Shown here piece by piece: positions 932-46,842 of a stretch of 64,000 bases of DNA. Below the pieces are notes generated by a model. That model had not been told where the DNA came from. It made no database searches and worked only from the letters and a program-made list of their open reading frames with translations. The stretch's first letter is position 1. Each line of letters starts with the position of its first letter. The translations under genes were made by a program, and so were the position numbers. This DNA comes from an uncultured Myxococcales bacterium (lineage in GTDB: Bacteria; Desulfobacterota; Binatia; UBA1149; CAITLU01). The stretch is taken from positions 12,532 to 76,531 of the forward strand of contig CAYYZO010000005.1 of assembly GCA_964476185.1 (NCBI GenBank). Reading direction: 5' to 3'.

Positions 932-2137
932 TCAGCCCTGCGACAACTGCGACAACGCGATCGCCGCGTGCAGCGCCGCGCCGTGCTGGATCACGTCTTC
1001 GTCGATCTTCATCAGGTCGGAGTGCAGCGGCCCGCCGCCGTCGGTCTTCGCGCCGAGGAACGCGAATGCGCCGGGGACCTTCTCGAGCACGTAGGAGAAA
1101 TCCTCGGCGCCCATCACGGGGCTCGGCAGCTCGAGCACGGACAGTCCGACCCGTTCGGCGGTGCGCACGACCAGGTCGACCGGGTCGTCGTGGTTGACCG
1201 TCGGCGGATAGCCGTGGATCAGGCTCACGTCCGCGTGGATCCCGCGCGCCGCCGCCACGCCGTGCGCGACGCGCAGCAGCTGCTCGTGCGCCAGGCCGCG
1301 GCCGCGCGGGCTCAGCGCGCGGATCGTGCCGCCGCACTCGGCGGTCGGGGGCACCACGTTGTTCGTGGTTCCCGCCGTCACCTGCGTCACGCTCATCACG
1401 ATGCGGTCGTCCGGGTTCGTCTCGCGCGCGACCACGTGCGAGAGCCCGTCGACGAACGGACCGATCGCCGGGATCGGGTCGCGGGTGAAGTGCGGCATCG
1501 AAGCGTGCCCGCCCGCGCCCTTGAAGATCACCGAGAACGCGTCGGCCGACGCCATGATCGTTCCCTTGCGGATGCCCACGCGGCCGAGCGGCGTGCTCGG
1601 GTCGACGTGCAGCGCATAGGCCGCGTCGACGCCGACGAGGGCGCCTTCCTCGATCATCATGCGTGCGCCGCCGAATCCTTCCTCGCCGGGCTGGAACAGC
1701 AGGCGCACGGTGCCGGCGAAGGTCCGTCGCCGCGCGGTGAGGATCTCGGCGGCGCCGAGCAGCATCGCGACGTGCGCGTCGTGGCCGCACGCGTGCATGC
1801 AGCCCTCGTTCTTCGAGCGGAACTCGAGGTCGTTGTGCTCGCGAAGCGGCAGCGCGTCCATGTCGGCCCGCAGCGCCACGATGCGCGGCCTGGCGTTCGT
1901 CGGCGCGGTCCCGCGGACCTCGGCGACGACCGAGCTCAGGGAGTCGCCGGTCGCGATCGAATCCACGCCGATCCGGCGCAGCTCCTCGACGATCACGCCC
2001 TGCGTGTGCGGCAACTCGAGGCCGAGTTCCGGGAACGCGTGGATGCGACGTCGGTTGGCGACGAGGCGCGCCTCGAGCGCGGCGGCGTCGCTGCGGAGTT
2101 CGTGGAGGAGATGAAGGTCGGTGCTCTGGACGATCAT
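932..2137 (-). CDS. M20 family amidohydrolase (N-acyl-L-amino-acid amidohydrolase / hippurate hydrolase-like)
   Basis: The C-terminal 401 aa of the artefactual 1027-aa ORF 932..4015 are the real gene. Metal-binding motifs are present (..GCMHACGHDAHVAMLLGAA.., ..LLFQPGEEGFGGARMMIEEG..). The ATG at 2137 (MIVQSTDL) overlaps the upstream gene's stop as ATGA. Confidence 0.85.
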   Translation of the reverse strand: MIVQSTDLHLLHELRSDAAALEARLVANRRRIHAFPELGLELPHTQGVIVEELRRIGVDSIATGDSLSSVVAEVRGTAPTNARPRIVALRADMDALPLREHNDLEFRSKNEGCMHACGHDAHVAMLLGAAEILTARRRTFAGTVRLLFQPGEEGFGGARMMIEEGALVGVDAAYALHVDPSTPLGRVGIRKGTIMASADAFSVIFKGAGGHASMPHFTRDPIPAIGPFVDGLSHVVARETNPDDRIVMSVTQVTAGTTNNVVPPTAECGGTIRALSPRGRGLAHEQLLRVAHGVAAARGIHADVSLIHGYPPTVNHDDPVDLVVRTAERVGLSVLELPSPVMGAEDFSYVLEKVPGAFAFLGAKTDGGGPLHSDLMKIDEDVIQHGAALHAAIALSQLSQG

Positions 2138-2748
2138 GATGGGTTCATTCTCGCGACGAGTCGCTGGACGATGTTTCGGTAGACGGCGCGCTCCTGCGCG
2201 CCGGGAAGCTGGAATCCGCCGTCGAGCACGACGCACGGCACGGCCGAGATGCCGAGTTCGACGGCCTCGTTGTGCTCGGAGTAGACCTCGCGCGAGATCT
2301 CCGGGTCGTCGTAGTCGCGCGCGAAGCGCTCGAGGTCGAGGCCGCACTCGCGCGCGACGAGCGCGATCGTCGCGAGCGAGGTCACGTCGAGGTTGCGGGC
2401 GAAGTACGCGTGCATCAGCGCACGGTGGTAGCGGTCGAACGCCTCCTGGCGCGCGGCCGCCTTGACGGCGACGGCCGGCGGCACCGAGTGCGACGGCGGC
2501 TCCTCGTCGGTGGCCCAGACGCGGAACTCGCCGGAATCCGGCTGCGCGGCCGGCCTCATCCACGACTCCGTGTAGCGACGGAACTTCTCCAGCGGCTTCG
2601 GCTCGGCATGCGGGCGCAGCAGGTAGCTCTTCCACTCGAGCCGCAGCTCGGCGATGTCGGACACGTCTTCCCGGACCTGTTCGAGGCACACGGCCGCGTT
2701 CTGGCACCAGGGTCAAAGGACATCCGACCAGACCTGGAAGTGGATCAC
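2134..2748 (-). CDS. DsbA-like (FrnE/2-hydroxychromene-2-carboxylate isomerase family) thiol-disulfide oxidoreductase with an in-frame TGA at 2713..2715 in the active-site position (candidate selenoprotein, UPWC)
   Basis: ORF track 2134..2691 (185 aa) has a DsbA-like C-terminal region (..GISAVPCVVLDGGFQLPGAQER..) but no CxxC. Extending upstream in frame gives VIHFQVWSDVL-TGA-PWCQNAAVCLEQ.., which matches the family N-terminus xIDxxSDxxCPWC with TGA in place of the first Cys. Candidate starts are GTG 2748 or GTG 2760. The next in-frame stop upstream (2806..2808) is the stop of the upstream PPOX gene. Confidence 0.6.
2682..2698 (-). promoter_or_regulatory. weak candidate bacterial SECIS-like hairpin downstream of the in-frame UGA
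   Basis: On the mRNA, 14 nt after the UGA, lies 5'-CGCGGC[CGUGU]GCCUCG-3'. It has a 5-bp GC stem with one C.U mismatch and an apical loop containing GU. The position fits the range where a bacterial SECIS element would sit, but the structure is short and unvalidated. Confidence 0.25.
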
Positions 2749-2805
2749 GGGCAACGGCACCGGCGGATCGTGGCACCGCCCCCCGGCAACGGCAAGGAAC
2801 GCCGG

Positions 2806-3360
2806 TCAGTCCCTGCGCAGGCGCGCGACCGGCGCAGGCAGGCCGTCGATGCTGACTTCGTTGTTCCGGCGCTGGTACTCGGCGATGCCATCCGGCCCCT
2901 TGCGCTCGGCCCAGCGCGTCAGCGTGTCGCGCTCGCGGGGATTGTCCATGCGCGGCACCGCATACCCGCACGACGTCTGCACGCGCTCGAGGTCGAGCAC
3001 CAGGATCTGCCGCTCGCCCGGATGATCCGCGAAGTGTCGCCGAAGCCCGGCGTACTCCGTGTCCGCCGGCAGCACGGTTCGGCCGCGGCCGTACAGCCGC
3101 AGGATGAGGGCCCTGGCTCCGAAACTGCAGAACAGGATCGTCAGGCGTCCGTTGTCCGCGAGGTGCGCGGACGTTTCGTTGCCGCTGCCGGTCAGGTCGA
3201 GGTACGCGACGGTCTTCGCGTCGAGCACGCGGAACGTGTCGAGCCCCTTCGGCGACACGTTGACGTGACCGCCGGAGGTCGGCGCGGTCGCGACGAAGAA
3301 CACCGGCTGCTGCCGGATGAAGTCGGTCAGCTCGTCCGACAGACGGTCGAAGACTTCCAT
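2806..3360 (-). CDS. pyridoxamine 5'-phosphate oxidase family (FMN-binding split-barrel) protein
   Basis: MEVFDRLSDELTDFIRQQPVFFVATA..GHVNVSPKG.. is typical of PPOX-class proteins. I chose the second ATG (3360) as the start. Confidence 0.75.
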   Translation of the reverse strand: MEVFDRLSDELTDFIRQQPVFFVATAPTSGGHVNVSPKGLDTFRVLDAKTVAYLDLTGSGNETSAHLADNGRLTILFCSFGARALILRLYGRGRTVLPADTEYAGLRRHFADHPGERQILVLDLERVQTSCGYAVPRMDNPRERDTLTRWAERKGPDGIAEYQRRNNEVSIDGLPAPVARLRRD

Positions 3361-3475
3361 GCGCGGCTGATAGCCGGGCCGGCCCCGCAAGACAACGCCG
3401 CCGCGGCGGCTTGACTCCTCCCCGCGCGGCGGCGTTCATGCCTGCCTCCCGGCATCCGCCGGCGGAGACGGACTC

Positions 3476-4285
3476 TTGGGCAGCTTCCGGCAACCGACCG
3501 ATTTTCGCGACGAGTGCGAAGCGCTCCACGGGCTCGTCGCGTCGCGCGGCGACGGCGTGTTCGACGTCCGCACGCAGTTTCGCGGCTGGACGGTCGGCGA
3601 AGTCCTCGTGCACCTGCACGTCTGGAACGTCGGCGCCGATCTCGCGCTGCAGGACCCGGATCGCTTCCTCGGGTTCTATTCGCACTTCCGCGGGGCCGTC
3701 GAGGCAGGGACCAGCCTGCGCCCTCCCGAGAACGCGTGGATCGGGGAGCTTCGCGGCGCCGCCCTGCTCCGCGCCTGGCGCGAGCAGGCGCTCGCGATGG
3801 CGGCGCGGTTCGAAGCGGCCGACCCGCGCGCGCGCGTGCGCTGGGCCGGCCCCGACATGAGCGTGCGCTCGAGCATCACCGCGCGCCTGATGGAGACCTG
3901 GGCCCACGGGCAGGAGGTCCACGATGCGCTCGGCGTCGAACGCGTCGACACCGACCGGATCGGCAACATCGCGACGCTCGGCGTCAACACGTTCGGCTGG
4001 TCCTTCTCGGTGCACGGCCTCGCCGTTCCCGAGCGGGCGCCGCAGGTCCGGCTCACCGCGCCTTCCGGCGCGGCCTGGACGTGGAACGAGTCAAACGACG
4101 ACGACGTCGTCGAAGGCGACGCGACGTCGTTCTGCCAGGTGGTCACGCAGACCCGGAACGTCGCCGACACGCCGTTGCGCGTGCGCGGCGGCGTGGCGAC
4201 GAAGTGGATGTCGATCGCGCAGTGCTTCGCCGGCTCGCCGCAGATGCCGCCGGCGCCGGGCACGCGCCGGCCACAAGCCGCCTGA
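3476..4285 (+). CDS. maleylpyruvate isomerase N-terminal domain / TIGR03084-like (DinB-like) protein
   Basis: 269-aa ORF with motifs ..WTVGEVLVHLHVWN.. and ..LMETWAHGQEVHDALG.. typical of this family. Confidence 0.6.
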   Translation: MGSFRQPTDFRDECEALHGLVASRGDGVFDVRTQFRGWTVGEVLVHLHVWNVGADLALQDPDRFLGFYSHFRGAVEAGTSLRPPENAWIGELRGAALLRAWREQALAMAARFEAADPRARVRWAGPDMSVRSSITARLMETWAHGQEVHDALGVERVDTDRIGNIATLGVNTFGWSFSVHGLAVPERAPQVRLTAPSGAAWTWNESNDDDVVEGDATSFCQVVTQTRNVADTPLRVRGGVATKWMSIAQCFAGSPQMPPAPGTRRPQAA

Positions 4286-9500: not shown

Positions 9501-10068
9501 CGAGCCCCATCTCGTAGCGCTCGAGCAGGACCTCGAGCTTCTCGCCGACGACCGCGCGGCCCGCCCCGGACAGCGTGCGGCGCACGGCCTCGCGGTAGAG
9601 CGGCTCGGGATCGTCGACGACGCGCGGCGTGCTGCCGAGCCGCGACATCAGCGGCGTCGACGCGACGACGCGCGAGCAGAAGCCGTCGATCGTGAAGACC
9701 TGCAGGCGCGACGGCGAGTGCAGCAGTTCCCAGCCGAGCTCGCGGTCGCGCGCGAGCACCGCGCGCGCCAGCTCGAAGCCCTCGCGCTCGAAGTCGTGCG
9801 CCGGCTCCCTGCCCGAGTCCGCCTCGGCGAGCGCCTCGAGGATGCGACGACGCATCTCGCCGGCCGCCTTGCGCGTGAAGGTGATCGCGAGCACCGCCTC
9901 GGGACGGTCGACTCGCGCGAGCAGCGCGAGGAAGCGCAACACGAGAAGTCCGGTCTTGCCGGAGCCCGCGGGCGCCTGCACGACGAAGCTTCGCGAGACG
10001 TCGAGCGCCTCGGCGCGCTGGCGCGCGTCGGGGATCCCCGGCTGCCCGGCGCCGTCCTGCCTGCTCAT
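6571..10068 (-). CDS. addA: double-strand break repair helicase AddA (UvrD-type helicase with C-terminal PD-(D/E)XK nuclease), alphaproteobacterial type
   Basis: Real gene trimmed out of the 2668-aa artefactual ORF. Start is MSRQDGAGQ. Walker A is ..VQAPAGSGKTGLLVLRF.., and helicase motifs include ..VDEFQDTN.. and ..MTMHKAKGLQFD... The C-terminus carries ..WIVDYKTG.. as the nuclease motif. The ATG at 10068 overlaps the addB stop as ATGA. Confidence 0.85.
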   Translation of the reverse strand: MSRQDGAGQPGIPDARQRAEALDVSRSFVVQAPAGSGKTGLLVLRFLALLARVDRPEAVLAITFTRKAAGEMRRRILEALAEADSGREPAHDFEREGFELARAVLARDRELGWELLHSPSRLQVFTIDGFCSRVVASTPLMSRLGSTPRVVDDPEPLYREAVRRTLSGAGRAVVGEKLEVLLERYEMGLDRLEDQLVDMLARREQWREGAIGRHEDTDDRVARLESALEGAVAAEVATIADGAEPSLVDRVHALARASRDVVEGPCAWPTLGDRHRLGGGADSAPAWKQAAALLGKDDGKRLRTRRTANADVHAGDERVKTMLGDLLEDIADLPGDGAARWTGRLRHGALLPTSTTFSADGRAALSAFFAVLRHCLGELWHVFRERREVDYGEIGIGAVAALAPGETLEKLDARLEHILVDEFQDTNVMQCELLRGLTSGWQQGDGRTLFLVGDPMQSIYRFRKAEVGLFLAARSSAGFVENCVLESLALSVNFRSTTTVVDWVGRVFPILLGDRDDATRSLVAFAPASAGPKAGAGPDVEFVLWTSGPGGEKAADADAIEAAGLADLIAAEVRAQRDGERPPRRGRVPVAVLVRSRNHALPLLRALEAAHPDLRLRAPGLDWLADRPSVVELEALTRALVHPGDRLAWLALLRSRLVGLALADIAALVEPDVASAGSSRRTTPIPLLLADETALARTSGDARRRIARLLEVTGAAARDLALRSLDIAVRSAWLRLGGPAGAPALAALEAESFFDVLSSRPAGAAIDLDDLARRLRATEAPVDSDAEADVEIMTMHKAKGLQFDTVVLPALGRGSGRGSAPPLAIETDGTSGRLMLVAPRAARGREDADGDKYDFLAFRESGREANESLRLLYVAATRAERRLVLSSPAGRLTKDGAPSKGSLLAALEPGLPVDAAERRTAAAPASAASRRTLVRLRDGFALSPARSVEDRSVATERPSEPVRIDTETVAGDGLAARIGIAFHAFAERIANDGVGAWPEERVRAERPAIAHVLRSRGVPPAQLDEAAARVERALAATLGDERGRWILAAHAEARSEWELTSWNGRVLTPAQIDRTFVDGGTRWIVDYKTGALDGAADARAIAERCAPYLGQLARYGELLAARDPARPVRLGLFFPEWPDGLRWQDVTDAAAGHRPENRGSGEVRP

Positions 10069-12884
10069 TCGCCGCCCTCCTCGGCGTCGCCGTCGTCCTC
10101 GTCGGGCGGGCCGAGCTCGGCGATGCGGCAGAACGCCTGGCTGCCGCAGTTGCGGCACACGGCCGCCTCGCGCGGGGCGACGCGCACGTCTCCGGCGAGA
10201 TACGCGTTCGCGAGTCCCGCGAGGACGTCGCGCCACTCGTCGGCCCGGGAACGGTAGTCCTCCGCCGAGCGCACGGCCTTTCGTCCCGGCGGACGGAAGC
10301 GCGCGCCGTATTCGCCGGCGCCGACGCCGTGCAGCACGCAGGCGTCGCGCGCCGAGAGGTTCGCGAACGCGATGCCGTCGACGCGCTCGCCGCGGGCTTC
10401 GAGCAGCGCGAGGTAAAGCGGAAGCTGCGGGTCCTTCGGCCGCTCGCCGTTCCAGAGCGACGGGCTCTTCGGCGTCGCCGAGGTCTTGTAGTCGAGCACG
10501 ACGAGCCCGCCGTCCTCGTGGCGGTCGATGCGGTCGGCGCGGAAGCGGATCGTCAGCGGCTCCGCGGCGCCGGGCGGGAACGTCGCCGTGTCGTCGTGCT
10601 CGCTCGCGTCGACCGCCCACGCCACCGTTCGGGCGCCGCGCTCGTAGTGCATCCAGCTCGCGACGAGGTCGACGAGCCACGCGCCGACGACCGCGGCGAG
10701 GTCGGGAGCGTCCTCGAGGAAATCCTTCTGCTGCTCGAGCGCGTGCGCGGCGGCGACGCGCGCGACTTCCGCGATGTCGCGGTCGCCGAGGCCGTCGAGG
10801 TCGCTCGACGAAGGGATGTCCGTGTACGCCTTCGCGAGCGCGTCGTGCACGAGCGTGCCGCGCAGCGCCGCGTTCGGCTGCGCCTCGATCGCCTGCAGCG
10901 GCTCGGCCGCGAGACGCGTGGCGGCGAGCGCGCGAAACGGGCAGTCGGACTGGCGCGTCAGCAGCGCCGAGCCGCCCGAGCGCACGAGCGGCGCCCCGGC
11001 TTCGTCCGTCGGCAGCGGCTCGGTGGCCCCGTCGGCCGCGGCCGCGGCGAGCCACCACGGCCGCCCTTCGGCCGCGCCGGGCGGCTCGGCCGCGAGGCGC
11101 GCGAGGAACGAACTCGGCGACTGCTCCTCGCCGGCGTCGCCGGCGGCCGACCAGCTCGCCCAGACCTCGGGCGCGCTGCGAAGCACGCGCTGCCAGACGG
11201 CCGTCGCGAGCTCGCGCTCGGCGTCGACCGACACGCGCGGCATCCCGGCCTGCGTGCGCTGCCACGCGACCGGCAGGAGCGGGTTCGGCCGCGGCGGCGG
11301 CGGGAAAGCCGTCGACGTCAGCCCGATCGCGAAGACGACGTCGAAGTCGAAGCCGGCGGCGTCGAGCAGGCTGACCACCTGCACCGAGCGGTTGGTCGCG
11401 GGCGGCTGCACCGGCACGCCCGCGCAGATCGCGCGAAGCCGCGCCAGCGCGTGGTGCGCTTCCATCCGCGGCTCGATGGCCTCCAGCGCGACGAACTCGT
11501 CGAGCGCCTCGCGCCAGCGCCGGAACAGGAGGCCCTCGGCGTCGCCCTCGAGCTCGCCGGGCCAGCCGAGGATCGCCAGGCGCTCGTGCCATTCGTTGCG
11601 CCATTCGGTCGGCGTCCGGCTGGTGCGGCGCCCCGGCTGCGGGCGAGCGGACGCCAGGCGCGTCGCGAGGCGTTCCACCAGGGCAGCCGTTTCCCCGAGT
11701 CCGCCTTGGCGCAGCGTCGTCGCGAGGCTGCCCGCGCGACCGACAAGCCGCAGCGACGACGCGCGTTCGCGCCGCAGCAGCGCCTCCGCGCGGCCGCGGA
11801 GCGCGCGCTCGCGCTGTTGATCCCCCGCCGCGAGGCCGCGCCGGCGGGGATGCGCCGCCAGCAGGATGCGCGACGCGAGCTCGAACGGGACAGGGCCGTC
11901 CTCGAGCGAGAGCAGGTCGAACGCGTTCGCGACGAGCGGATAGTCGGCCAGGCTCGGCGCCTCGGCGAAGTCGAAGCGGCGCGCCGACGACGCGCCCGGC
12001 GCGAGGATGCCCTCGGGATCGAGCTCTTCCTCGAACACGCGTTCGAGGCGGCTTCCCCACGCCGAGGTGTCGGGCGCGAGCACGCCGATGCGCAGGTCCG
12101 GACGTTCGAGCAACAGCGCCCGGATCCGCGACGCGACCGTGCGCAGCTCGGCCGTGGGCGTCGGCGCGATCCACGCGCGCGGCTCGACCGGCGCCGCGGA
12201 CGCGACGGTCGCGCGATCGCGCACGTCGGCGCCGCGTTCCCGGACGGCCTGCAGCAACCGCTCGAGCGCCGGGTCGTGCTTCTCGAAGTCGAGCGCGACG
12301 ACGACGGCGGGGACGGACGACGCCAGGCGATCCCCGCGAATCGCCGCCGCGACGATCGAGGCGAGCTCGGCCGTCGTCGCGAACGCGCCCTCGTGCAGCC
12401 GGGCGCGCAGCGACGGCAGCCAGCGGCGAAACGCCTCGACGTCCTCGGTGACGGGCCCCGCCCAGGACGGTTCGCCCCACAGGCAGGTCCGCGACCAGGC
12501 GTCGGAGGCCGTCGCGGCGAGCGAGACGATGTCGAGCAGCTGGCGCGGGAGGTCGCCGGGCGCGTCGGCGATCACGCGCTCCCAGAGGACGCGCTCGGCG
12601 CCCGGCGAAAGCAGCACGCGCCCGCGCTCGCCGCGGTCGACTTCGGCGGCGAGCGCTTCGCGCCCGAGACGATCGAGCCAGTCCGCGAGCGAATGGATCG
12701 GCGGCGTTTCGCTGACGCTGCGGCCGGCGTCGGCACGAAGCTCCGCGACGCGAAGTCGAAGGGCGCGCGCGAGACGGCGCGTCGGCGTGACGATCCAGGC
12801 CGGCGGGTCCGCGTCGAGCAACTGCAGCAACTCTTCGTCGCGGCGGCGGCCGGCGGCGCCTCGCTCGCTCGTTGCGTCGGCCAC
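10065..12884 (-). CDS. addB: double-strand break repair protein AddB (PD-(D/E)XK nuclease family), alphaproteobacterial type
   Basis: 939 aa with a GTG start at 12884. The C-terminus has ..LVVLDYKTSATPK.. and a Cys cluster ..CRNCGSQAFCR... It sits immediately upstream of addA in the same operon. Confidence 0.8.
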   Translation of the reverse strand: MADATSERGAAGRRRDEELLQLLDADPPAWIVTPTRRLARALRLRVAELRADAGRSVSETPPIHSLADWLDRLGREALAAEVDRGERGRVLLSPGAERVLWERVIADAPGDLPRQLLDIVSLAATASDAWSRTCLWGEPSWAGPVTEDVEAFRRWLPSLRARLHEGAFATTAELASIVAAAIRGDRLASSVPAVVVALDFEKHDPALERLLQAVRERGADVRDRATVASAAPVEPRAWIAPTPTAELRTVASRIRALLLERPDLRIGVLAPDTSAWGSRLERVFEEELDPEGILAPGASSARRFDFAEAPSLADYPLVANAFDLLSLEDGPVPFELASRILLAAHPRRRGLAAGDQQRERALRGRAEALLRRERASSLRLVGRAGSLATTLRQGGLGETAALVERLATRLASARPQPGRRTSRTPTEWRNEWHERLAILGWPGELEGDAEGLLFRRWREALDEFVALEAIEPRMEAHHALARLRAICAGVPVQPPATNRSVQVVSLLDAAGFDFDVVFAIGLTSTAFPPPPRPNPLLPVAWQRTQAGMPRVSVDAERELATAVWQRVLRSAPEVWASWSAAGDAGEEQSPSSFLARLAAEPPGAAEGRPWWLAAAAADGATEPLPTDEAGAPLVRSGGSALLTRQSDCPFRALAATRLAAEPLQAIEAQPNAALRGTLVHDALAKAYTDIPSSSDLDGLGDRDIAEVARVAAAHALEQQKDFLEDAPDLAAVVGAWLVDLVASWMHYERGARTVAWAVDASEHDDTATFPPGAAEPLTIRFRADRIDRHEDGGLVVLDYKTSATPKSPSLWNGERPKDPQLPLYLALLEARGERVDGIAFANLSARDACVLHGVGAGEYGARFRPPGRKAVRSAEDYRSRADEWRDVLAGLANAYLAGDVRVAPREAAVCRNCGSQAFCRIAELGPPDEDDGDAEEGGE

Positions 12885-12887
12885 CGG

Positions 12888-13688
12888 TCAGTCGCCCGAC
12901 GGCGCGGACGGCCCGCGCACGAGCGACAGGATCGTGCGGATGCGCTCGGCGTTGACGCCGAGGTCGCCCTTGCCGTCGCGCGACTTCGAGCGCACGTCGA
13001 TGCGGCTGCCGCCGCCCTCGAACGGGCGGATGCGCACGACGACGTCGTCCTGGAAGCGGAACAGGCGCGAGGTCTCGGTCGCCTCGATCCGGCCCTCCTC
13101 GCGGTTCTCGCCGGTGATGTGCATGCGCGGCATGCCGGCCAGCACGGCGCGGACGCGGTCGTAGACGACGTCCGGGGCATCCTCGACGACGAGCGCCGCG
13201 AGGTCCGGGTACGCGGCCTGCTGCTGCGCGGCGAAGGCCTCGCCGGGATAGCCCATGTCGCGGCCGCGGTTCGGCGCCTGTTCGAGCGCCGCGACGAAGA
13301 CCGGAGGATCGCCGACGTCGGTGGTGATGTCGTTGATGCGCGGCAGTCCGCTCCCACGCGACGCGCCGGCCAGCAGCGCGACGACGACCAGCACGCCCAG
13401 CGCGAGGCCGCGCGCGGCCAGCGGACGACCGCTTCGGCCCTTGCCCGGCGCCGTCGCGACGAGACCCAGCACCGACGTGACGACCCCGACGAGCGCGAGC
13501 CCGAGGCCGAGCACCATCAGCAGGAAGCCGCCGAACGGCGGGAGCACGCCGGACGCCGACCCGCCCACGCCGGCCAGCACGAACGCGACGGCGACCAGCC
13601 CGAGTTGCGACCCCATCCTGGCCGACGGCGCGACGACAACGGTTTCGGAAGTCATGGGCGCGGATCCTAACGCAGCGCTCGGCGCCAC
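12888..13688 (-). CDS. DUF1499 domain-containing membrane protein
   Basis: N-terminal TM helices followed by a DUF1499-like soluble region (..DMGYPGEAFAAQQQAAYPDLAALVVED..RIDVRSKSRDGKGDLGVNAERI..). Start uncertain. Confidence 0.6.
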   Translation of the reverse strand: MAPSAALGSAPMTSETVVVAPSARMGSQLGLVAVAFVLAGVGGSASGVLPPFGGFLLMVLGLGLALVGVVTSVLGLVATAPGKGRSGRPLAARGLALGVLVVVALLAGASRGSGLPRINDITTDVGDPPVFVAALEQAPNRGRDMGYPGEAFAAQQQAAYPDLAALVVEDAPDVVYDRVRAVLAGMPRMHITGENREEGRIEATETSRLFRFQDDVVVRIRPFEGGGSRIDVRSKSRDGKGDLGVNAERIRTILSLVRGPSAPSGD

Positions 13689-20217: not shown

Positions 20218-22692
20218 ATGATCAAGAAACGATGCGGCTCACGAACGGCGATTGCGGCGACGATGGCGATCCTGGCGGGTCTGCCCTTTCCCTCGGCGGC
20301 AACGGCAGGCGACCCCACTGCGCTGCTCTTCCCGCTCGACGGCAGCTACACGCTCGTCGACTTCTACGAGAACGGCGCTCCCGACCAGGGTAACGACGAC
20401 GACTCGACGGGAATCCTGCTCAGCTTCCCGTTCGACCTCTACGGCGAGTCGTACTCGGACGCCTACATCAACAACAACGGCAACGTTTCGTTCGTCACGC
20501 CGTATGGATCCTACAGCTCGACCGGCTTCCCGGACCCTTCGTTCAAGATGGTCGCCCCGTTCTGGGCCGACGTGGACACCAGGTACGGCAACGGCCAGGT
20601 CTGGCACAAGCTGACAGCGAGCACGCTCGTCGTCACCTGGGACAACGTCGGCTACTACAGCGGCCACGGCGACCTGCGCAACACGTTCCAGCTCGCCATC
20701 TCGGACGGCAGTGATCCCACCATGGGCATCGGCAACAACGTCTGTTTCAGCTACTCCGACATGGCCTGGACGACAGGCGACGCCTCCGGAGGCGCGGGGG
20801 GCTTCGGGGGAACGCCGGCCACCGCGGGCGCCAACCGCGGCAACGGCGTCGACTTCTTCCAGATCGGCCGCTTCGACCATGAAGGGACCGACTACGACGG
20901 GCCATCCGACAATGCGGACGGCATCAGTTATCTCGATGGCCGGACCTACTGCTTCAATGCGTCGTCGAACACGAACAACATCGCGCCGATCGCCTCCGGC
21001 TTCCCGGTCGGGAACGTCGTCGACCTCGACTGCTCGGCGGGCGACGTGCTCGACCTCGCCCTCTCGTTCCTGAGCCCCGAGGTCTTCCAGACGACGACCG
21101 TCGTCGTCGACGACGTGCACGGCGCGACGGCAGCCGGGCTCGCGATCGTCAACACCCCGGGCAACACCGCCACCGTCGCCCTCGACTGGGCTCCCGATTG
21201 TGCGGACGTCGGGTCCTGGCGTCTCGACTTCACGGCGACCGACGACCACGTGACGCCGGGCGAGACCGAAGTGAGCCTGACGGTCAACGTGATCCAGCCT
21301 TGCGGCAACGGCATCGTCAGCGGCGACGAGCAGTGCGACGACGGCAACACGGTGGACGGCGACTGCTGCTCGTCCTCCTGCCAGATCGAGGAAGCCGGGA
21401 CCGTCTGCCGGGAAGCCGTCAACGGCGTCTGCGACTCGGCGGAGGTCTGCGACGGAACGTCCGGAAGCTGTCCCGCCAACGTGTCGGCCCCCGCGGGGAC
21501 GGCCTGCCCCGCGGACGGCAACCCCTGCACCGACGACGTCTGCGACGGCATCGGGGGATGCGGCGTCGCGAACACGGCCGGCTGCGACGACTCGCTCTAC
21601 TGCAACGGCATCGACATCTGCGCGGGGGGAGTCTGCACGCACCCGGAACCGCCCTGCGGCGACGCGGAATGCAGCACCTGCGACGAGGACAACGACGAAT
21701 GCGGCGTCATCACCGCGGGTGTCTCGTGCGACGATGACGGCGACCAGTGCACGAACGACCAGTGCGACGGCCTCGGGGAATGCGCCCACCCGCCGATCGT
21801 CCTCGCACCCGCCTGCGACTGGATCATCGTGACCGGCTCCGATGCCCGCGCCGCCGGCGTGAAGACGCGCGCAAGCTCCAACGTGCGCGGAAGCGTCTGC
21901 GCGGATACCGCGGATGTCGGCGTTTCCTCGAGGCTGCTCGGCCCCGCGTCGTGGGCGCTGATGGAAGACAGCGGCGATGCGGCGCGCGTGCGGTCGCTGG
22001 CCACCGTCGAGAACGGCAGCGTCGTGACCGCGGGCGGCTGCCTGGCCGGCTTCCGCGACTTCCCGATCTTCGGGACGACCCTCGACGGCGAGATCTGCTG
22101 CAGCGCGGGCAGCGTGGAGTTGCCCGGCGGGAACCCGGCCAACGTGATCAACGCCTGCGGCACCGACAGCCTGCTGGGAGATTGCGAGGCCGCGCGCTCG
22201 CAAGTCGACGGTGACGTCGCCGAACTCGACGCGCTGGCGGCGACGCAGACGCACGGGTCGCTGTCGATCCAGCCGGGCCAGACGCACACCCTGCTGGTCG
22301 GACCGGGCCGGAACGTGATCGACTTCGACCGCATCAAGATCGGTCGCGGCGCGACGCTGGCGATCGACGCGCAGGGCAACAACGACGCCGTCGTGATCGT
22401 GCGCATGGGTCGCGGCTTCTCTGCCAAGAAGGGCGTCGGCGCCAAGAACGCTGCCCCGACCGTCGCGCTGCTCGGAGGCCTGCAGGCTCGCAACCTGCTC
22501 TTCTACGCGGTCGACGGAGGCTGCAGCGTCGGCCTCAACAACGTCGGCGCGGGCACGTTCTTCTGCCCCCAGGGACGCGTGCGCGTGCGAGTCGGATCGG
22601 AGTGGAGCGGCGCGATCGTCGCAGGCGGAGCCGTGGACATCGGCATCGGCGTCGAGTTCGCCCACGTTCCCTTCCTCGGCCTGGCCGAGTAA
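20218..22692 (+). CDS. large secreted protein with an N-terminal NIDO-like domain, a central array of Myxococcus-type cysteine-rich repeats and a C-terminal beta-rich domain of unknown function
   Basis: A signal peptide (MIKKRCGSRTAIAATMAILAGLPFPSAATA) is followed by a NIDO-like block (FPFDLYGESYSDAYINNNGNVSF..APFWADVDT). Then come repeats such as CGNGIVSGDEQCDDGNTVDGDCCSSSCQIE and further C-rich modules (..CTDDVCDGIGGC.., ..CDDDGDQCTNDQCDGLGEC..). The C-terminal roughly 250 aa are G/A/V-rich and beta-like. A Shine-Dalgarno sequence (GGAGGAT) precedes the start. Confidence 0.8.
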   Translation: MIKKRCGSRTAIAATMAILAGLPFPSAATAGDPTALLFPLDGSYTLVDFYENGAPDQGNDDDSTGILLSFPFDLYGESYSDAYINNNGNVSFVTPYGSYSSTGFPDPSFKMVAPFWADVDTRYGNGQVWHKLTASTLVVTWDNVGYYSGHGDLRNTFQLAISDGSDPTMGIGNNVCFSYSDMAWTTGDASGGAGGFGGTPATAGANRGNGVDFFQIGRFDHEGTDYDGPSDNADGISYLDGRTYCFNASSNTNNIAPIASGFPVGNVVDLDCSAGDVLDLALSFLSPEVFQTTTVVVDDVHGATAAGLAIVNTPGNTATVALDWAPDCADVGSWRLDFTATDDHVTPGETEVSLTVNVIQPCGNGIVSGDEQCDDGNTVDGDCCSSSCQIEEAGTVCREAVNGVCDSAEVCDGTSGSCPANVSAPAGTACPADGNPCTDDVCDGIGGCGVANTAGCDDSLYCNGIDICAGGVCTHPEPPCGDAECSTCDEDNDECGVITAGVSCDDDGDQCTNDQCDGLGECAHPPIVLAPACDWIIVTGSDARAAGVKTRASSNVRGSVCADTADVGVSSRLLGPASWALMEDSGDAARVRSLATVENGSVVTAGGCLAGFRDFPIFGTTLDGEICCSAGSVELPGGNPANVINACGTDSLLGDCEAARSQVDGDVAELDALAATQTHGSLSIQPGQTHTLLVGPGRNVIDFDRIKIGRGATLAIDAQGNNDAVVIVRMGRGFSAKKGVGAKNAAPTVALLGGLQARNLLFYAVDGGCSVGLNNVGAGTFFCPQGRVRVRVGSEWSGAIVAGGAVDIGIGVEFAHVPFLGLAE

Positions 22693-37016: not shown

Positions 37017-38018
37017 ATGCCGACGACAACCCCCAGCGAGGCGACGGTGCCCCCGTTCGAGACGACGCTGCGCGCGCAGGGACATTGGCCGTTCGCGCGC
37101 GAAACCGTCCGCACCGTGCAGGTCAACGTCGGCAAGCTCTGCAACCAGGCCTGTCACCACTGCCACGTCGACGCGGGACCGAAGCGCACGGAGATCATGA
37201 CCGCAGCGACCGCGGCGCGCGTGCTCGAGTTGCTCGCCGGCGCACCCGCCGTCACCACGCTGGACGTGACGGGCGGCGCCCCCGAGCTCAATCCGTCGTT
37301 CGCCGGCCTCGCGAGCGGCGCCCGTTCGCTCGGCAAGGAAGTGATCGTGCGCTGCAACCTCACGGTGCTGTTCGAGCCCGGACTCGGGCACCTGCCCGAG
37401 ATGTATCGCGACCTCGGCGTGCACCTGGTCTGCTCGCTGCCCTGCTACACGGCGGAGAACGTCGACCAGCAGCGCGGGCGCGGCGTGTTCGACCGGAGCA
37501 TCGAAGCCCTGCAATGGCTCGGGGCGCTCGGCTACGGAAGCGGCGGCGAACGGCTGCGTCTCGACCTCGTCTACAATCCACTCGGCGCGTTCCTGCCGCC
37601 TCCGCAGGCCGAGCTCGAAGCGAAGTATCGCGAGGAGCTCGGGCGACTGTTCGACATCCGCTTCGACCGCCTGCTCACGCTCACGAATCTCCCGGTCAAG
37701 CGTTTCGCGGAGATGCTCGCGCGGCGCGGCGAGATGGAACGCTACATGGGACTGCTCGTCGCGCACTTCAACACCGCCACGGTGCCGGAACTGATGTGCC
37801 GCAGCCTGGTCAGCGTCGCGTGGGACGGGTCGCTGCACGATTGCGACTTCCACCAGATGGAGGAAATCCCGCTGCTCGTGGGCGACTCGGCGCAGACCCT
37901 GTGGACGATCCGCTCGTTCGAGGAGCTGGCCGGGACGGCGATCCAGCCCGCGTCCCACTGCTACGGCTGCACGGCCGGCGCGGGCTCGAGTTGCAGCGGC
38001 TCGATCGCCGCAGGCTGA
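37017..38018 (+). CDS. arsS: radical SAM protein of the ArsS family (arsenosugar-biosynthesis radical SAM (seleno)protein family), Cys form
   Basis: CxxxCxxC radical-SAM motif (CNQACHHCHVD) and the family's conserved C-terminus (..HCYGCTAGAGSSCSG..). No arsM is adjacent. Confidence 0.75.
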   Translation: MPTTTPSEATVPPFETTLRAQGHWPFARETVRTVQVNVGKLCNQACHHCHVDAGPKRTEIMTAATAARVLELLAGAPAVTTLDVTGGAPELNPSFAGLASGARSLGKEVIVRCNLTVLFEPGLGHLPEMYRDLGVHLVCSLPCYTAENVDQQRGRGVFDRSIEALQWLGALGYGSGGERLRLDLVYNPLGAFLPPPQAELEAKYREELGRLFDIRFDRLLTLTNLPVKRFAEMLARRGEMERYMGLLVAHFNTATVPELMCRSLVSVAWDGSLHDCDFHQMEEIPLLVGDSAQTLWTIRSFEELAGTAIQPASHCYGCTAGAGSSCSGSIAAG

Positions 38019-39769
38019 GGCTCCGCGAAGCGCGCGAGCGCCGCGACCATCGACGGCAGCGCGAGCGGGCGCAGCTCGAGCGTCTCCGAGAACGCCTCGA
38101 ACGTGCGGCGCGCCGTTTCCCGGTAACGCCCGTCGCGTTCGGCCAGGCGGACGAACAGCAGCGCGGCGGCCGAGTTGCCGCTGGCCGCCGCGCGATCCAC
38201 GGCGGGCTCGAGGCGCAGCGGCAGCGTTCCCGTGCCGGCGGCCGTCTGGAAGAATCCGCCCGACGCCTCGTGGCCGAAGCGCGCCGGCAACTCGTCCGCG
38301 ATCGCGCGCGCTGCCTCGAGCCAGCGCCCGTCCTCGCCGTGCGCGGTCGCCTCGTGAAGGTCGAGGAAGGCGAGCGCGAGCAGCGTGTGGTCGGCGAGGT
38401 AGCCGTCGCCGCAGCGCTGCGCGTCGATCGCGCAGTGCACGACGCTGCCGCCGTCGCGAAGCCGCGCGTCGAGTTCGCGCGCCGCCGTGACGGCGGCTTC
38501 GAGCAGGACCGGATCCGCCAGCACGGCGGATCCGCGCGCGAGCGCGGAAATCGCGACGGCGTTCGCGTCCGCGAGCACGCGCTCGTCGCGCGGGGCGGGC
38601 GTGCCGTCGGTGGCGAGCGACGCCGCGAACGCGCCACCCGGCAGCCGGAGGTCGCCGAGCAGGAAGCCGACGGTGCGGCGCGCGGTCTCGAGGAAGTCGC
38701 GCCGGCCGGTCGCTTCGCCGGCCTTGAGGTACGTGCGCGCGAGCGCCGCGTTGTCGGCGAGGAATTTCTCGGGCGCCGGATCCTGCCAGCGCCCGGCGCG
38801 CGCGAAGCGGAAAAAGCCTCCACGGGCCCGGTCCTCGAGCGGGCTGCCCTGCAGCCGCTCCAGCGCGGTCGTCGCGATCGCGAGCGCCGCCGCGTCGCCC
38901 CGGCGTCCGCGCTCGACGAGGAAATCCATCAGCGGAGCGCGCGGGAACCACGGCGGCGGGCCGAACGCTCCCGCTTCCGCATCGAACGACGCGCCGGCGT
39001 AGCCGACCAGCGAGGCCGCCGTCTTCGCCGCGTCCGGCAGCGGCCCCGACGAGTCGATCGCCGCGCGCCGCGCCATCTTCTCGAACGTGCCCTCGGCGCG
39101 CTCGGCGATCATGCCTCCCCCGAGATCGATGCGCCGGGCGACTTCCGTGACAAGCCGGTCGGGTTGCTTCACGGTGGTGGCGGCAGCGCCCCACGACTCG
39201 GCCGCGAACGGCCGCCCGTCGGGCAGCAGCACGACGATCGCCGGCCAGCCGGCGCCGCCGGTGAGAACCTGCGTCGCGAGCATCAGGTACGCGTCGACGT
39301 CCGGCTGCGCGTGGCGGTCGACGAGCAGCGGCACGAAGCGCTCGTTGATCGTGCGCGCGAGGTCCGCCGAAGAAAGCGCGTCGCGGCCGAGCGCGTTGCA
39401 CTCGGCGCACGAGGCGTCGCCGGTCAGCGCGAGCACCGGCAGGCCCGACGCGGCGGCTTCGTCGAGCGACTGCCGGGACCACACGCGCCAGTCGATCGGA
39501 TCGAGGGCATGGCGCCTCGCGAACGCGCCCGATTCGAGCGCGAGGCGGTTGCAGGTCCGACGGTCGGAAAGAAGCGCTCCTGCTGGAACATCGGCGGCCG
39601 CGACGGCGGCGGCCAGGGATGGCGGAAACGCGGCGGCTCCCGGGAGGGCGGGATCGGGCGCGGCGCAGCGGACGGCGGCGACGCCGGGGCTTCGCGGATC
39701 GCAGCCCGCCGGGATCGCGAGCGCGCCGAAACCGGCCAGCACCAGCGCGGGAAGCGATTCGAGACGCAC
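37961..39769 (-). CDS. thioredoxin-domain protein of the DUF255/YyaL family (N-terminal Trx-like fold + (alpha/alpha)6-barrel), probable lipoprotein
   Basis: ..GLPVLALTGDASCAECNALGRDAL..FVPLLVDRHAQPDVDAYLM.. is the Trx-like N-domain with a CxxC-like pair. The GTG start at 39769 gives a signal peptide and lipobox ..LVLAGFGALAIPAGC. Its 3' end overlaps the arsS 3' end by 58 bp (convergent). Confidence 0.65.
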   Translation of the reverse strand: MRLESLPALVLAGFGALAIPAGCDPRSPGVAAVRCAAPDPALPGAAAFPPSLAAAVAAADVPAGALLSDRRTCNRLALESGAFARRHALDPIDWRVWSRQSLDEAAASGLPVLALTGDASCAECNALGRDALSSADLARTINERFVPLLVDRHAQPDVDAYLMLATQVLTGGAGWPAIVVLLPDGRPFAAESWGAAATTVKQPDRLVTEVARRIDLGGGMIAERAEGTFEKMARRAAIDSSGPLPDAAKTAASLVGYAGASFDAEAGAFGPPPWFPRAPLMDFLVERGRRGDAAALAIATTALERLQGSPLEDRARGGFFRFARAGRWQDPAPEKFLADNAALARTYLKAGEATGRRDFLETARRTVGFLLGDLRLPGGAFAASLATDGTPAPRDERVLADANAVAISALARGSAVLADPVLLEAAVTAARELDARLRDGGSVVHCAIDAQRCGDGYLADHTLLALAFLDLHEATAHGEDGRWLEAARAIADELPARFGHEASGGFFQTAAGTGTLPLRLEPAVDRAAASGNSAAALLFVRLAERDGRYRETARRTFEAFSETLELRPLALPSMVAALARFAEPQPAAIEPLQLEPAPAVQP

Positions 39770-39887
39770 GGGCCGGGTGTAACGCGAGGTCGCGTGCGTT
39801 TCGAATCGTCCTGCGACGGGAGTCCGGCGACCGGGGGCTCGTCGCGACTCCCGGTCCATCGGCGATCCCGCCGACGGACCCGACCTG

Positions 39888-40328: not shown

Positions 40329-40573
40329 CGGCGTCGGCTCCTGGGTTGGAATCGTTTCTTCGCTCGCGTCTCCCCCTGCGACGTCGAGGCAAGTAAGGCA
40401 CCGCGTACCGGACCGGTCAACAGGACGGACGCACCCGTCCGGCGATTGCGGCAAGGCTGCCCCGCGGTTGCCGTGCGGCGTGAATCTTGAAACATTGCCG
40501 CAGCGCAGCGAACGCCACCATCGGCGGGGAGCACGGCTCCCCCGACCCCGCCGCGCCGGGAACGGACTCGAGA

Positions 40574-42565
40574 ATGGAACCTGCAACCCCTGAAGTTTCC
40601 GGCCACCCGGCGAAGGCAACCGTGCGCGGCTACGGCGGAATGCGCGTCGTCTTGTTCGAGAGCCGCATGGCGTCCGAGGCGGCACGGCTCGTGCACAACG
40701 CCGGCGGCGTCGCGATCCCGGCCCCGACGATGAAGGAGGTGCCGCTCGAATCGAACGATGCCGCGTTCGCCCTCGCCGACGCGCTGCTGGCAGGCGAGGT
40801 CGACGTCGTGCTGTTCCTGACCGGCGTCGGGACCCGCACGCTGTTCTCGGCCTGGCAGACCCGCTACGAGCTGCCGCGCCTCGTCGAGGCGCTGTCCCGG
40901 ACGACCGTCGTCGCTCGCGGGCCGAAGCCGGTCCAGGCGCTGCGCGACCTCGGCGTCGCGATCACGATCACCGTCCCCGAGCCCAACACCTGGCGCGAGC
41001 TGCTGCTGACGCTCGACGAGGCCGCCGAATCGGTCGAGCTCTCCCGCGCGCGCGTCGCGATCCAGGAGTACGGCGTCTCCAACGACGACCTGGTGCGCGA
41101 GCTCGAGCGCCGCGGCGCCGTCGTACGGCGCGTGCCGGTCTACCGCTGGGAGCTGCCCGACGACGTCCGTCCGCTCGAGGACGCGATCCGGCAGGTGCTC
41201 GCGCGCACCGCCGACGTGCTGCTGTTCACGAGCTCGAACCAGGCCTACAGCCTCCTCACCGTCTTGCGGCGGATGGGCGTCGAGGACGCTTTCCGCCACG
41301 CTCTTCGCGAGGTCGTGGTCGGATCGGTCGGCCCGGTCTGCAGCGAGACGCTCGGCGAGCACGGTTTCCAGGTCGACTTCGAGCCGTCGCACCCGAAGCT
41401 CGGCACGCTGATCAAGGAGGGGTCCCAGATCGCGCCGCCGCTCGTGATCGAACGGCGCGAACGGCTGCGCGAGACGGCCCGCACGCGCGCGAATCCCGCC
41501 GTCGCGACGACGAAGGCCGCCGACGCCGCCGCGCTTCGCGACAGCGTCTTCCTGCGCGCGTGCCGCCGCGAGCCGGTGCCCCACACGCCGGTGTGGCTGA
41601 TGCGCCAGGCCGGCCGCTACATGCAGGAGTACCGGGAGGTCCGCGCGCGCGCGTCGTTCATCGAGCTCTGCAAGACGCCCGAACTCGCCGCGAAGGTCGC
41701 GCTGGACGCGCAGCAGCGTATCGGCGCCGACGCGGCGATCCTGTTCTCCGACATCCTGCTGATCCTCGAGCCGATGGGCCTCGGCCTCGAGTACGTGCAC
41801 GGCGACGGCCCCAGCCTGTCGCGCCTCGTGCGCGGCCCGGAGGACGTCGACCGCCTTCGCGAGATCGACCCGGTCCAGTCGCTCGACTACGTGATGGAAG
41901 CCGTCCGGTGCACGCGCGCCGCGCTTCCGGCCGATATCCCGCTGATCGGGTTCAGCGGCGCGCCGTTCACGCTCGCGTCGTACGTGATCGAGGGCGGCGG
42001 CTCGCGCAACTACATCCAGACGAAAAAGTTCCTGTACGGCGACAAGGGCGCCTGGGACGCGATGATGGACAAGCTCGCGCGCGCCGTCGCGGCCTACCTG
42101 ATCGGCCAGATCGAGGCCGGCGTGCAGGCCGTGCAGCTGTTCGACAGCTGGGTCGGGTGCCTGGCGCCGTCCGATTTCGAGACGTACGTGGCGCCGCACA
42201 TGCGCACGATCGCCGAGGCGCTGCCGAAGGACGTGCCGCTGATCTCGTTCGGGACCGACACCGCGACCCTGCTCGACCTGCAGGTCGAGGCCGGCTGCTC
42301 GGTGATCGGCGTGGACCACCGCGTGCCGATCGCGAACGCGTTCGACCGCTTCGGCGACCGCGTCGCGGTGCAGGGCAACCTCGATCCGGTGCTGCTGTTC
42401 GCGCCACCCGACGTGATCCGCCGCGAGGCCGCGCGGGTGGTCGCGGAGGTCGCGGGCCGGCCGGGCCATGTCTTCAACCTCGGTCACGGCATCCTCCCCG
42501 GGACGCCGGTCGACCACGTAATCGCGCTCGTCGACGCCGTGCACGAGCTGTCCGCGAGAGGCTGA
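40574..42565 (+). CDS. hemE: fused uroporphyrinogen-III synthase (HemD, N-terminal ~270 aa) / uroporphyrinogen decarboxylase (HemE, C-terminal ~350 aa)
   Basis: The N-terminal half is HemD-like (two-lobe Rossmann-like; ..VDVVLFLTGVGTRTLF.., ..VLLFTSSNQAYSLL..). The C-terminal half starts with the HemE signature ..PVWLMRQAGRYMQEYREVRA.. and continues with ..FSDILLILEPMG.., ..GFSGAPFTLASYVIEGG.. in one uninterrupted frame. The start could be ATG 40574 or ATG 40640. Confidence 0.8.
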   Translation: MEPATPEVSGHPAKATVRGYGGMRVVLFESRMASEAARLVHNAGGVAIPAPTMKEVPLESNDAAFALADALLAGEVDVVLFLTGVGTRTLFSAWQTRYELPRLVEALSRTTVVARGPKPVQALRDLGVAITITVPEPNTWRELLLTLDEAAESVELSRARVAIQEYGVSNDDLVRELERRGAVVRRVPVYRWELPDDVRPLEDAIRQVLARTADVLLFTSSNQAYSLLTVLRRMGVEDAFRHALREVVVGSVGPVCSETLGEHGFQVDFEPSHPKLGTLIKEGSQIAPPLVIERRERLRETARTRANPAVATTKAADAAALRDSVFLRACRREPVPHTPVWLMRQAGRYMQEYREVRARASFIELCKTPELAAKVALDAQQRIGADAAILFSDILLILEPMGLGLEYVHGDGPSLSRLVRGPEDVDRLREIDPVQSLDYVMEAVRCTRAALPADIPLIGFSGAPFTLASYVIEGGGSRNYIQTKKFLYGDKGAWDAMMDKLARAVAAYLIGQIEAGVQAVQLFDSWVGCLAPSDFETYVAPHMRTIAEALPKDVPLISFGTDTATLLDLQVEAGCSVIGVDHRVPIANAFDRFGDRVAVQGNLDPVLLFAPPDVIRREAARVVAEVAGRPGHVFNLGHGILPGTPVDHVIALVDAVHELSARG

Positions 42566-46068: not shown

Positions 46069-46085
46069 GTCGCTGATCCTCCTTC

Positions 46086-46120
46086 GGATGTCGCTCCCGG
46101 ATGTCGCTCCCGATGCTCCC
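46086..46120. repeat. tandem direct repeat GGATGTCGCTCCC x2 plus a partial third unit (GATGCTCCC)
   Basis: Seen directly in the LLM/yqgE divergent intergenic region at 46086..46120. Confidence 0.5.
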
Positions 46121-46281
46121 GCGGGTCGATCGGACTCCCGCTGCCGGCTCCCGGCGCCGAACGGGAGCGCGACCGGAGCCGGCCCGGCCTGCCGAGCATC
46201 TTGTGCGCGCAATGCGGACGCAACAGATTTCCGGAAGTCTTTCCCTTGCCGGACGGGCGGTCCGTGTGTACAGAGTCGGCC

Positions 46282-46842
46282 ATGCTTGGAGAACTGCACG
46301 TCGCCCCGGGACTCCTGATCGCGATGCCGCAGCTTCGTGATCCGAATTTCGACCGCTCGGTCGTGCTGATGATCGAGCACCGCTCCGAAGGATCCTTCGG
46401 GCTCGTCGTGAACCGGCCGACGCGCACGCCGGTCGGCGACCTGCTGAAATCGATCGACGTGGACTGGCACGGGACGAGCCACGAGGTCGCGTGGTCGGGC
46501 GGACCGGTGCAGCCGGAGACCGGATGGATCCTGCACGAGCAGGTCGACGGCCTCGACGGCCTCGGCACGCGCGAGGTTCTTCCCGGCGTCTACATCACGT
46601 CGGCGCCGGACGCGCTTCGCGAACTCGCGAAGCATCCGCCGAAGCGAGTGCGCTTCCTGCTCGGCTACTCGGGATGGGGGCCGGCCCAGCTCGAGCGCGA
46701 ACTGACCGAGACGGCCTGGGTGAACAGCGACGTCGACGCCGACTTCCTGTTCGACACTCCTGCGGCGCTGATGTGGGAAGCGGCCCTGCGCCGCCTGCAC
46801 GTCTCGCCCGAGACCCTCGCCCCATCGCACGGGATTCACTGA
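46282..46842 (+). CDS. YqgE/AlgH family protein (UPF0301)
   Basis: MLGELHVAPGLLIAMPQLRDPNFDRSVVLMIEHRSEGSFGLVVNRP.. is the canonical family N-terminus. 186 aa. Confidence 0.85.
   Translation: MLGELHVAPGLLIAMPQLRDPNFDRSVVLMIEHRSEGSFGLVVNRPTRTPVGDLLKSIDVDWHGTSHEVAWSGGPVQPETGWILHEQVDGLDGLGTREVLPGVYITSAPDALRELAKHPPKRVRFLLGYSGWGPAQLERELTETAWVNSDVDADFLFDTPAALMWEAALRRLHVSPETLAPSHGIH

Follow-up and report, generated by a model that had tools for sequence, protein, structure and literature searches.

In a 64-kb stretch of contig CAYYZO010000005.1 (hereafter the window, by which the whole stretch is meant), the list of open reading frames (ORFs) holds, on the minus strand at 2134..2691, a DsbA-like ORF of 185 amino acids (aa) that begins with GTG, has the N-terminus MCLEQVRED... 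and contains no CxxC motif. The frame of this ORF continues upstream across a single TGA, and the question arises whether the ORF is the complete gene or whether the TGA belongs to it and is read as selenocysteine (Sec). From the comparison with orthologues set out below, we hold it very probable (roughly 0.9) that 2760..2134 of the minus strand encodes a 208-aa cytoplasmic DsbA/FrnE-like thiol-disulfide oxidoreductase with the redox motif U-P-W-C, in which the UGA is read as Sec. An earlier reading of the letters alone (the sequence-only reading) had proposed such a DsbA-like selenoprotein, and the proposal is supported by the recurrence of TGA among orthologous loci, by a hairpin specific to the UGA forms and by the existence of a known selenoprotein family of this type.

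The reading frame, its start and its protein family

The TGA (2715..2713, minus strand) is the sole interruption of the 185-aa ORF frame up to the previous stop at 2808..2806 (minus strand), which is the terminator of the PPOX-family gene 2806..3390. The extended frame on the minus strand reads VPLPVIHFQVWSDVL, then the TGA, then PWCQNAAVCLEQ, so that the residues around the codon are ...VIHFQVWSDVL-U-PWCQNAAVCLEQ..., and translation from stop to stop gives PAFLAVAGGRCHDPPVPLPVIHFQVWSDVL, the TGA and PWCQNAAVCLEQ... The short ORF lacking CxxC, the lone TGA upstream of it and the PPOX stop as its boundary had all been described in the sequence-only reading and are confirmed here. The elements on which the argument rests are the following.

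2134..2760, minus strand: predicted coding sequence of the DsbA/FrnE-like selenoprotein, 208 aa including U16, from GTG 2760 to the stop 2136..2134 (from the frame, the Pfam match and the FrnE match)
2713..2715, minus strand: UGA, predicted to encode U16, counterpart of the nucleophilic first Cys of CPWC (from the orthologue codons and the FrnE alignment)
2704..2715, minus strand: predicted U-P-W-C redox motif (UxxC), with P, W and C invariant in 81/81 sequences
2689..2691, minus strand: GTG, probably a false start chosen by ORF callers; at the same time the GUG of the candidate apical loop and the Val codon in A-V-C-L
2682..2698, minus strand: candidate core of a bacterial selenocysteine insertion sequence (SECIS), a 17-nucleotide (nt) hairpin CGCGGC[CGUGU]GCCUCG with a C.U mismatch, nt 18-34 counted from the U of the UGA
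2670..2711, minus strand: possible extended SECIS hairpin, with the lower stems CCUGG/CCGGG and GCC/GGU around the core; the 48-nt fold has -17.0 kcal/mol

Three in-frame start candidates, GTG 2748, TTG 2754 and GTG 2760, lie 11, 13 and 15 codons upstream of the TGA. In the closest relatives (loci L081, L083, L012 and L001) the TGA is retained throughout and an ATG or GTG stands opposite GTG 2760, the alignment of the closest orthologues giving ATG in L081, L083 and L012. Because the closest relatives have ATG at that position, GTG 2760 is most likely the start and the product most likely has 208 aa. Of the two starts that had been considered before, GTG 2748 and GTG 2760, the second is thus favoured, and the length of about 204 aa given then has to be corrected to 208 aa. 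Four nt upstream of GTG 2760 lies a 13-nt motif, GGTGCCACGATCC (2765..2777, minus strand), whose sequence is preserved in L081, L083 and L001 and in part in L012; L081 has a different upstream neighbour. No obvious Shine-Dalgarno sequence was found near this motif and the GTG 2760 start, and the motif may be a regulatory or translation-initiation element.

For protein searches the TGA was replaced with Cys. The extended protein then matches the Pfam family DSBA (PF01323) with E = 5.4e-21 and 75.7 bits (cut-off 25.6) over residues 10-192, which span positions 4-184 of the 191 positions of the profile; the assignment to the DsbA-like oxidoreductases made from the letters alone is borne out by this match. 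Since residues 10-192 are covered, the N-terminal extension supplies the missing part of the DSBA domain. The top match among solved structures is FrnE of Deinococcus radiodurans (PDB 5cnw; E = 2.9e-11, 46.6 bits, residues 6-206), whose segment IRVDIWSDIACPWC is aligned with IHFQVWSDVL[U]PWC of the window protein. In the longer comparison of FrnE IRVDIWSDIACPWCYIG with IHFQVWSDVL[U]PWCQNA the alignment is free of gaps and places the TGA on the first Cys of CPWC, where the sequence-only reading had put it and where 49 Cys-containing orthologues (see below) put it as well.

FrnE is a cytoplasmic disulfide oxidoreductase/isomerase of the DsbA family, and it shares with the window protein the W-S-D-x-x-C-P-W-C segment and the lack of a signal peptide. 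The match is distant: FrnE has a Cys at the active site and 260 aa, whereas the window protein has a UGA at this position and 208 aa. FrnE further carries a C-terminal CxxxxC tail, which is not present in the window protein; the alignment stops at FrnE residue 223 of 260, and the C-terminus of the window protein, ...VYRNIVQRLVARMNPS, has no Cys among its last 30 residues. The periplasmic DsbA of Escherichia coli (CPHC) is similar in its thioredoxin fold, its helical insertion and its N-terminal CxxC at the start of alpha1, but it has a signal peptide and serves as an oxidant in the periplasm, whereas in the window protein only 15 residues precede the active site, whose motif is of the CPWC type. 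Because the active site lies only 15 residues after the start, a signal peptide appears to be missing and the location would be cytoplasmic. By analogy with D. radiodurans FrnE, a cytoplasmic role as reductase or isomerase is the most likely one for the protein.

The extension also bears on the entries under which relatives of this gene are found in the databases. The NCBI entry for the window gene itself (P0001) is the truncated 185-aa form, as the sequence-only reading had expected of standard pipelines. Its homologues fall into two classes, namely full-length proteins of 203-246 aa with WSDVLCPWC (e.g., the 208-aa P0005) and numerous shorter entries (about 183-189 aa) whose first residue lies just past the CxxC. 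The CxxC is missing from 86 of the 120 top-ranking database homologues (P0001 to P0120), and the most frequent N-terminal residues are [MV][CR]L[ED]K, at or beside the codon that corresponds to GTG 2689..2691. NCBIfam holds no dedicated model for the window protein, the best matches being far below cut-off, which is consistent with a persistence of the truncated form in automated annotation.

One could take these entries at face value and assume that the true product is a 185-aa DsbA-like protein without CxxC, translated from GTG 2691, the similarity upstream being a relic. This start is indeed the choice of the gene callers, and the 86 nearest entries just mentioned are annotated in the same way. 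The short entries, however, are truncated calls of TGA genes (the 31 GTDB loci treated below, and L081 to L083), so that orthologues which genuinely lack CxxC and begin at the 2691 GTG, a case that would have spoken for this alternative, are not borne out. The 15 codons before the TGA, moreover, keep the beta1-strand and S-D-x-L with synonymous variation, the Pfam domain needs the upstream residues, and it is implausible that a DsbA fold would lack beta1 and the start of alpha1. We therefore give a 185-aa product next to no probability. Most of this FrnE-like subfamily appears to be mis-annotated, the catalytic motif having been lost from the entries because gene callers stop at the presumed Sec codon and restart at or after the GUG of the SECIS-like loop. 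Functional conclusions drawn from such truncated entries, be it the 185-aa entry or its 86 relatives, would miss a redox-active selenoprotein.

The TGA codon and the adjoining hairpin across orthologues

To read the codon at the position of the first Cys, we used DNA from 80 species-representative genomes in which a relative is encoded. TGA stands there in 31 loci, TGC in 33 and TGT in 16, and TAA, TAG, TGG or any other codon does not occur in any of them. Orthologues with TGC or TGT at this codon, which the sequence-only reading had named as a check, are hence present in 49 of the 80 loci. The metagenome-assembled genomes (MAGs) with the TGA form are labelled Candidatus Binatia, Myxococcota/Deltaproteobacteria, Acidimicrobiia, Spirochaetaceae and Gammaproteobacteria, and the nearest orthologues and neighbours of the window gene are Candidatus Binatia MAGs. 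In what follows, the TGA set comprises the window gene and the 31 loci (n = 32) and the Cys set the remaining 49.

An in-frame start lies 6-18 codons upstream of the TGA in 31 of the 32 TGA genes, L008 being the exception. All 32 have S-D-x-L directly before the TGA, following a hydrophobic beta-strand, and this conservation matches that of the Cys forms, while the third codon positions of the segment vary among the TGA genes. Since S-D-x-L is conserved with synonymous variation, the segment upstream of the TGA is therefore translated in the same frame.

These data also bear on the possibility that the TGA arose from a Cys codon by nonsense mutation or by an error in base calling, the gene being either dead or an ordinary one with CPWC. 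A single base separates TGC from TGA, the source is probably a MAG, judging from the nearest relatives, and the hairpin of the window taken alone is not statistically remarkable. Against this, 31 of 80 independent species-level genomes have the same TGA, and so do independently made Sequence Read Archive assemblies of the closest relatives: the two nearest ones (L081/L082 with 88% and L083 with 86% identity) come from independent sequencing runs and have the same codon. A degenerating or miscalled codon is also at odds with the absence of TAA, TAG and TGG at this site, with purifying selection on the coding sequence on both sides of the TGA, and with the 29 nt after TGACCN (alignment columns 102-130), which are identical in the five closest sequences, silent sites included. 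A pseudogene or an assembly error is thus largely refuted by the comparison, and its remaining probability is very slight.

In a neighbour-joining tree evaluated by parsimony, Sec and Cys forms are intermingled and at least 15 changes of state are required, a pattern which is typical of real Sec/Cys families. With this number of switches between TGA and Cys codons, the family would be a clean one and well suited to a study of the exchange of Sec for Cys and of the decay of SECIS elements. In one locus (L069:177-240, plus strand), the active site has TGT, coding for Cys, and the SECIS-like hairpin is intact (CGGGGC CGUCC GCCUCG, -9.2 kcal/mol), which looks like a recent conversion from Sec to Cys with a 'fossil' SECIS; L060 and L044 are weaker cases of a Cys codon accompanied by a hairpin.

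The hairpin of the window (2698..2682, minus strand) begins 14 nt past the UGA, has the GU of its apical loop at nt 25-26 and folds with -5.3 kcal/mol. It had been pointed out before as SECIS-like, and it exists at the place given then. A small hairpin at nt 18-34 can be formed in 32 of 32 TGA sequences, in which the pairs closing the loop are C-G (32/32), G-C or G-U (29/32) and G-C or U-A (30/32). The lower three to four pairs occur in two registers, which switch with the encoded residues (L-E vs. L-R-R). Because total stability does not discriminate in a genome with 72% GC, position-specific tests were used, and in our view the stronger argument for the hairpin comes from setting the TGA genes against their Cys counterparts. 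A local hairpin of minimum free energy (MFE) that encloses a GU at nt 25-26 is found in 28 of 32 TGA genes vs. 5 of 49 Cys genes (Fisher p = 1.3e-12). When synonymous codons are shuffled, the 28-nt segment of the Sec group proves more stable than the shuffled versions (Wilcoxon p = 5.5e-7), by a margin that exceeds that of the Cys group (p = 0.003). Two bases of the stem also differ in frequency: codon 7 ends in G in 29/32 Sec vs. 16/49 Cys genes, and codon 10 ends in C in 27/32 vs. 14/49. The Ala-Val at codons 8-9, from which the GU of the loop arises, is invariant in the Sec forms only.

The upper 17-nt stem-loop of the E. coli fdhF SECIS begins 11 nt after the UGA and has its GU at nt 23-24. 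The window hairpin resembles this type in being a hairpin within the coding sequence just 3' of the UGA, in its upper stem-loop of 17 nt and in its apical GU, and it differs from it in geometry, with a start at 14 instead of 11 nt after the UGA and the GU at nt 25-26 instead of 23-24. The bulged U on the 5' side of the fdhF type is not found in the hairpin class of the window; in its place there is an invariant U on the 3' side which, according to the subfamily, forms a mismatch, a G.U pair or a bulge. An equivalent of the lower stem of the extended hairpin, with a different sequence, is present in L002, L007, L009 and L014, and the proposal that this extended structure (2711..2670) forms part of the SECIS is weakly supported.

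Family membership and the identity of the inserted residue

A selenoprotein family of this kind has long been described. A DsbA-like protein (COG2761/PF01323) with UxxC was reported in 2005 from the Sargasso Sea metagenome (Zhang et al.; PMC1088965), a DsbA-like selenoprotein was subsequently listed in Anaeromyxobacter dehalogenans, Desulfovibrio desulfuricans and Desulfotomaculum reducens (PMC1794560), and current reviews list a 'DsbA-like protein form 1' (PMC13188914, PMC9312934). The remark in the sequence-only reading that such proteins form an established family is thus borne out by this literature (PMC1088965, PMC1794560, PMC13188914). The window protein is like form 1 in its PF01323 domain, in having the putative Sec in place of the first Cys of CxxC, in its widespread Cys homologues and in a SECIS-like hairpin with a G in a small apical loop just past the UGA. 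The features by which a DsbA-like selenoprotein is recognised at the level of sequence, i.e., the DSBA domain, the aligned UGA, conservation on both sides of it and a SECIS-like stem-loop, are all present. The subfamily of the window is defined by the motifs PPSHSxPP and FRRYTESWxRP, and the published representatives (NIP15863.1, AACY01178397) may belong to it. As far as these comparisons go, the window gene is a further member of the published UxxC DsbA-like selenoprotein family and would involve no new mechanism, since both selenoproteins of the UxxC DsbA-like kind and bacterial SECIS hairpins within the reading frame are established. Binatia and Acidimicrobiia go unmentioned in the selenoprotein literature cited here, and a literature search that paired Binatia with selenocysteine found no paper; by the present comparison, selenium is probably used in the MAG lineages of Candidatus Binatia and in some of those of Myxococcota and Acidimicrobiia.

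The course of events that we propose is a conventional one. The UGA at 2715..2713 would be recoded to Sec by a SelB/Sec-tRNA complex, which would be recruited by the SECIS hairpin within the coding sequence (2698..2682) 14 nt downstream by way of its apical GU, and the Sec would stand in place of the nucleophilic Cys of CxxC, as in other thioredoxin-fold selenoproteins. From the comparative pattern we infer both that the inserted residue is Sec and that this organism has the Sec machinery.

Several results weigh against this proposal. In the 64-kb window ARAGORN found no tRNA genes at all, and hence no tRNA-Sec, and it found no tRNA-Sec in the flanks of the 31 TGA-bearing loci either. SelA, SelB and SelD were not found in NCBIfam and Pfam scans of the approximately 60 ORFs of the window, and a tblastn search with an E. 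coli SelD sequence in the window and all fetched loci gave no match, which is weak as a negative. The hairpin of the window is weak by itself, given its low stability and its C.U mismatch, and a competing structure wins the 30-nt fold. Its MFE is not better than that of shuffled sequences in dinucleotide and synonymous tests (z = 0.21, -0.43 and -0.23), and the extended hairpin is no more stable than its synonymous shuffles (z = -0.23). RNAalifold on the 32 TGA sequences returned a consensus core of 3 base pairs only, pair counts in a fixed register are ambiguous and formal covariation is modest; the modest covariation and the short core can be explained by the use of two registers in the lower stem. 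Lastly, Rfam gave no SECIS match for 2500..2900 at E <= 10 but merely two chance-level matches to small RNAs.

It can further be asked whether the UGA is recoded to an amino acid other than Sec, that is, to Cys through a SelB-like factor together with a Cys-charged selC-like tRNA, or through near-cognate read-through. The insertion of Cys at UGA by a SelB-like factor and a selC-like tRNA is a variant described for some bacteria, and the comparative data show that the UGA is decoded and accompanied by a SECIS-like hairpin, not which amino acid is inserted. Such alternative decoding is rare, however, the site is the classic Sec/Cys redox position of an established selenoprotein family, and the frequent switching between TGA and TGC/TGT is the ordinary pattern of selenoproteins, for which reasons we regard the chance of a residue other than Sec as slight.

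Other recoding candidates and genomic surroundings

A reassignment of the genetic code is ruled out, as TGA is a normal stop in 23 of the 26 confident genes of the window. A scan of the window for in-frame stops with coding signal on both sides returned only TGA 12890, TAA 33389 and TAG 61441, none of which has a redox context. The first of these (12888..12890, minus strand) lies between a DUF1499 gene (12891..13688) and an AddB-like gene (TIGR03623 'probable DNA repair protein', 10068..12884), which share the same frame, have a strong coding signal on both sides of the TGA and lack a redox motif; as a recoding site it was rejected, and the two are most likely just adjacent genes. A radical-SAM protein is encoded at 37017..38015 (plus strand) and matches TIGR04167 'arsenosugar biosynthesis radical SAM (seleno)protein ArsS' with 406.6 bits (cut-off 300). 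Some members of the ArsS family have Sec near the C-terminus, but in the window protein the motif is ...GSSCSG... and the codon at the corresponding position is TGC, i.e., the Cys form, so that it was rejected as a second selenoprotein. On the opposite strand, a thioredoxin-fold protein (Thioredox_DsbH/DUF255, E = 3e-28; 37964..39859, minus strand) adjoins the ArsS gene, and no in-frame stop was seen in it.

The immediate neighbours of the DsbA-like gene are two genes on the same strand.

932..2137, minus strand: M20 amidohydrolase gene (TIGR01891, PF01546), downstream; its ATG overlaps the stop of the DsbA-like gene (ATGA, 2137..2134)
2806..3390, minus strand: PPOX/PNPOx-family flavoprotein gene (PF01243), upstream; its stop bounds the open frame

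The M20 gene is the next gene after the DsbA-like one in the 12 loci of the nearest clade, which include Sec and Cys forms, and is a conserved, translationally coupled partner. The upstream PPOX-family gene is conserved in 4 loci and lies near the DsbA-like gene in the closest relatives. One could speculate that the subfamily consists mostly of selenoproteins and forms, with the M20 partner, a selenium-dependent cytoplasmic redox module or, more radically, that in some lineages the UGA and its SECIS came to specify Cys by way of a hijacked SelB/tRNA pair; we would assign such an extended scheme a low probability.

Some further observations concern the remainder of the window, which has a GC content of 71.8%. 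An 824-aa protein (20218..22689, plus strand) contains Nidogen-like (NIDO, E = 1e-24) and Disintegrin (E = 6e-9) domains, which are more familiar from animal extracellular proteins. A 692-aa ORF (40487..42562, plus strand) combines a uroporphyrinogen-III synthase (residues 50-312) with the uroporphyrinogen decarboxylase HemE (355-687) and looks like a HemD-HemE fusion; it is followed by a protoporphyrinogen oxidase gene (42615..44051). Three further genes (3476..4282, plus strand; 45097..46839, minus strand; 53116..54684, plus strand) belong to families whose names suggest Actinobacteria (TIGR03084/mycothiol-type maleylpyruvate isomerase family, F420-dependent LLM oxidoreductase and wax-ester/triacylglycerol synthase), though the nearest relatives are Binatia MAGs.

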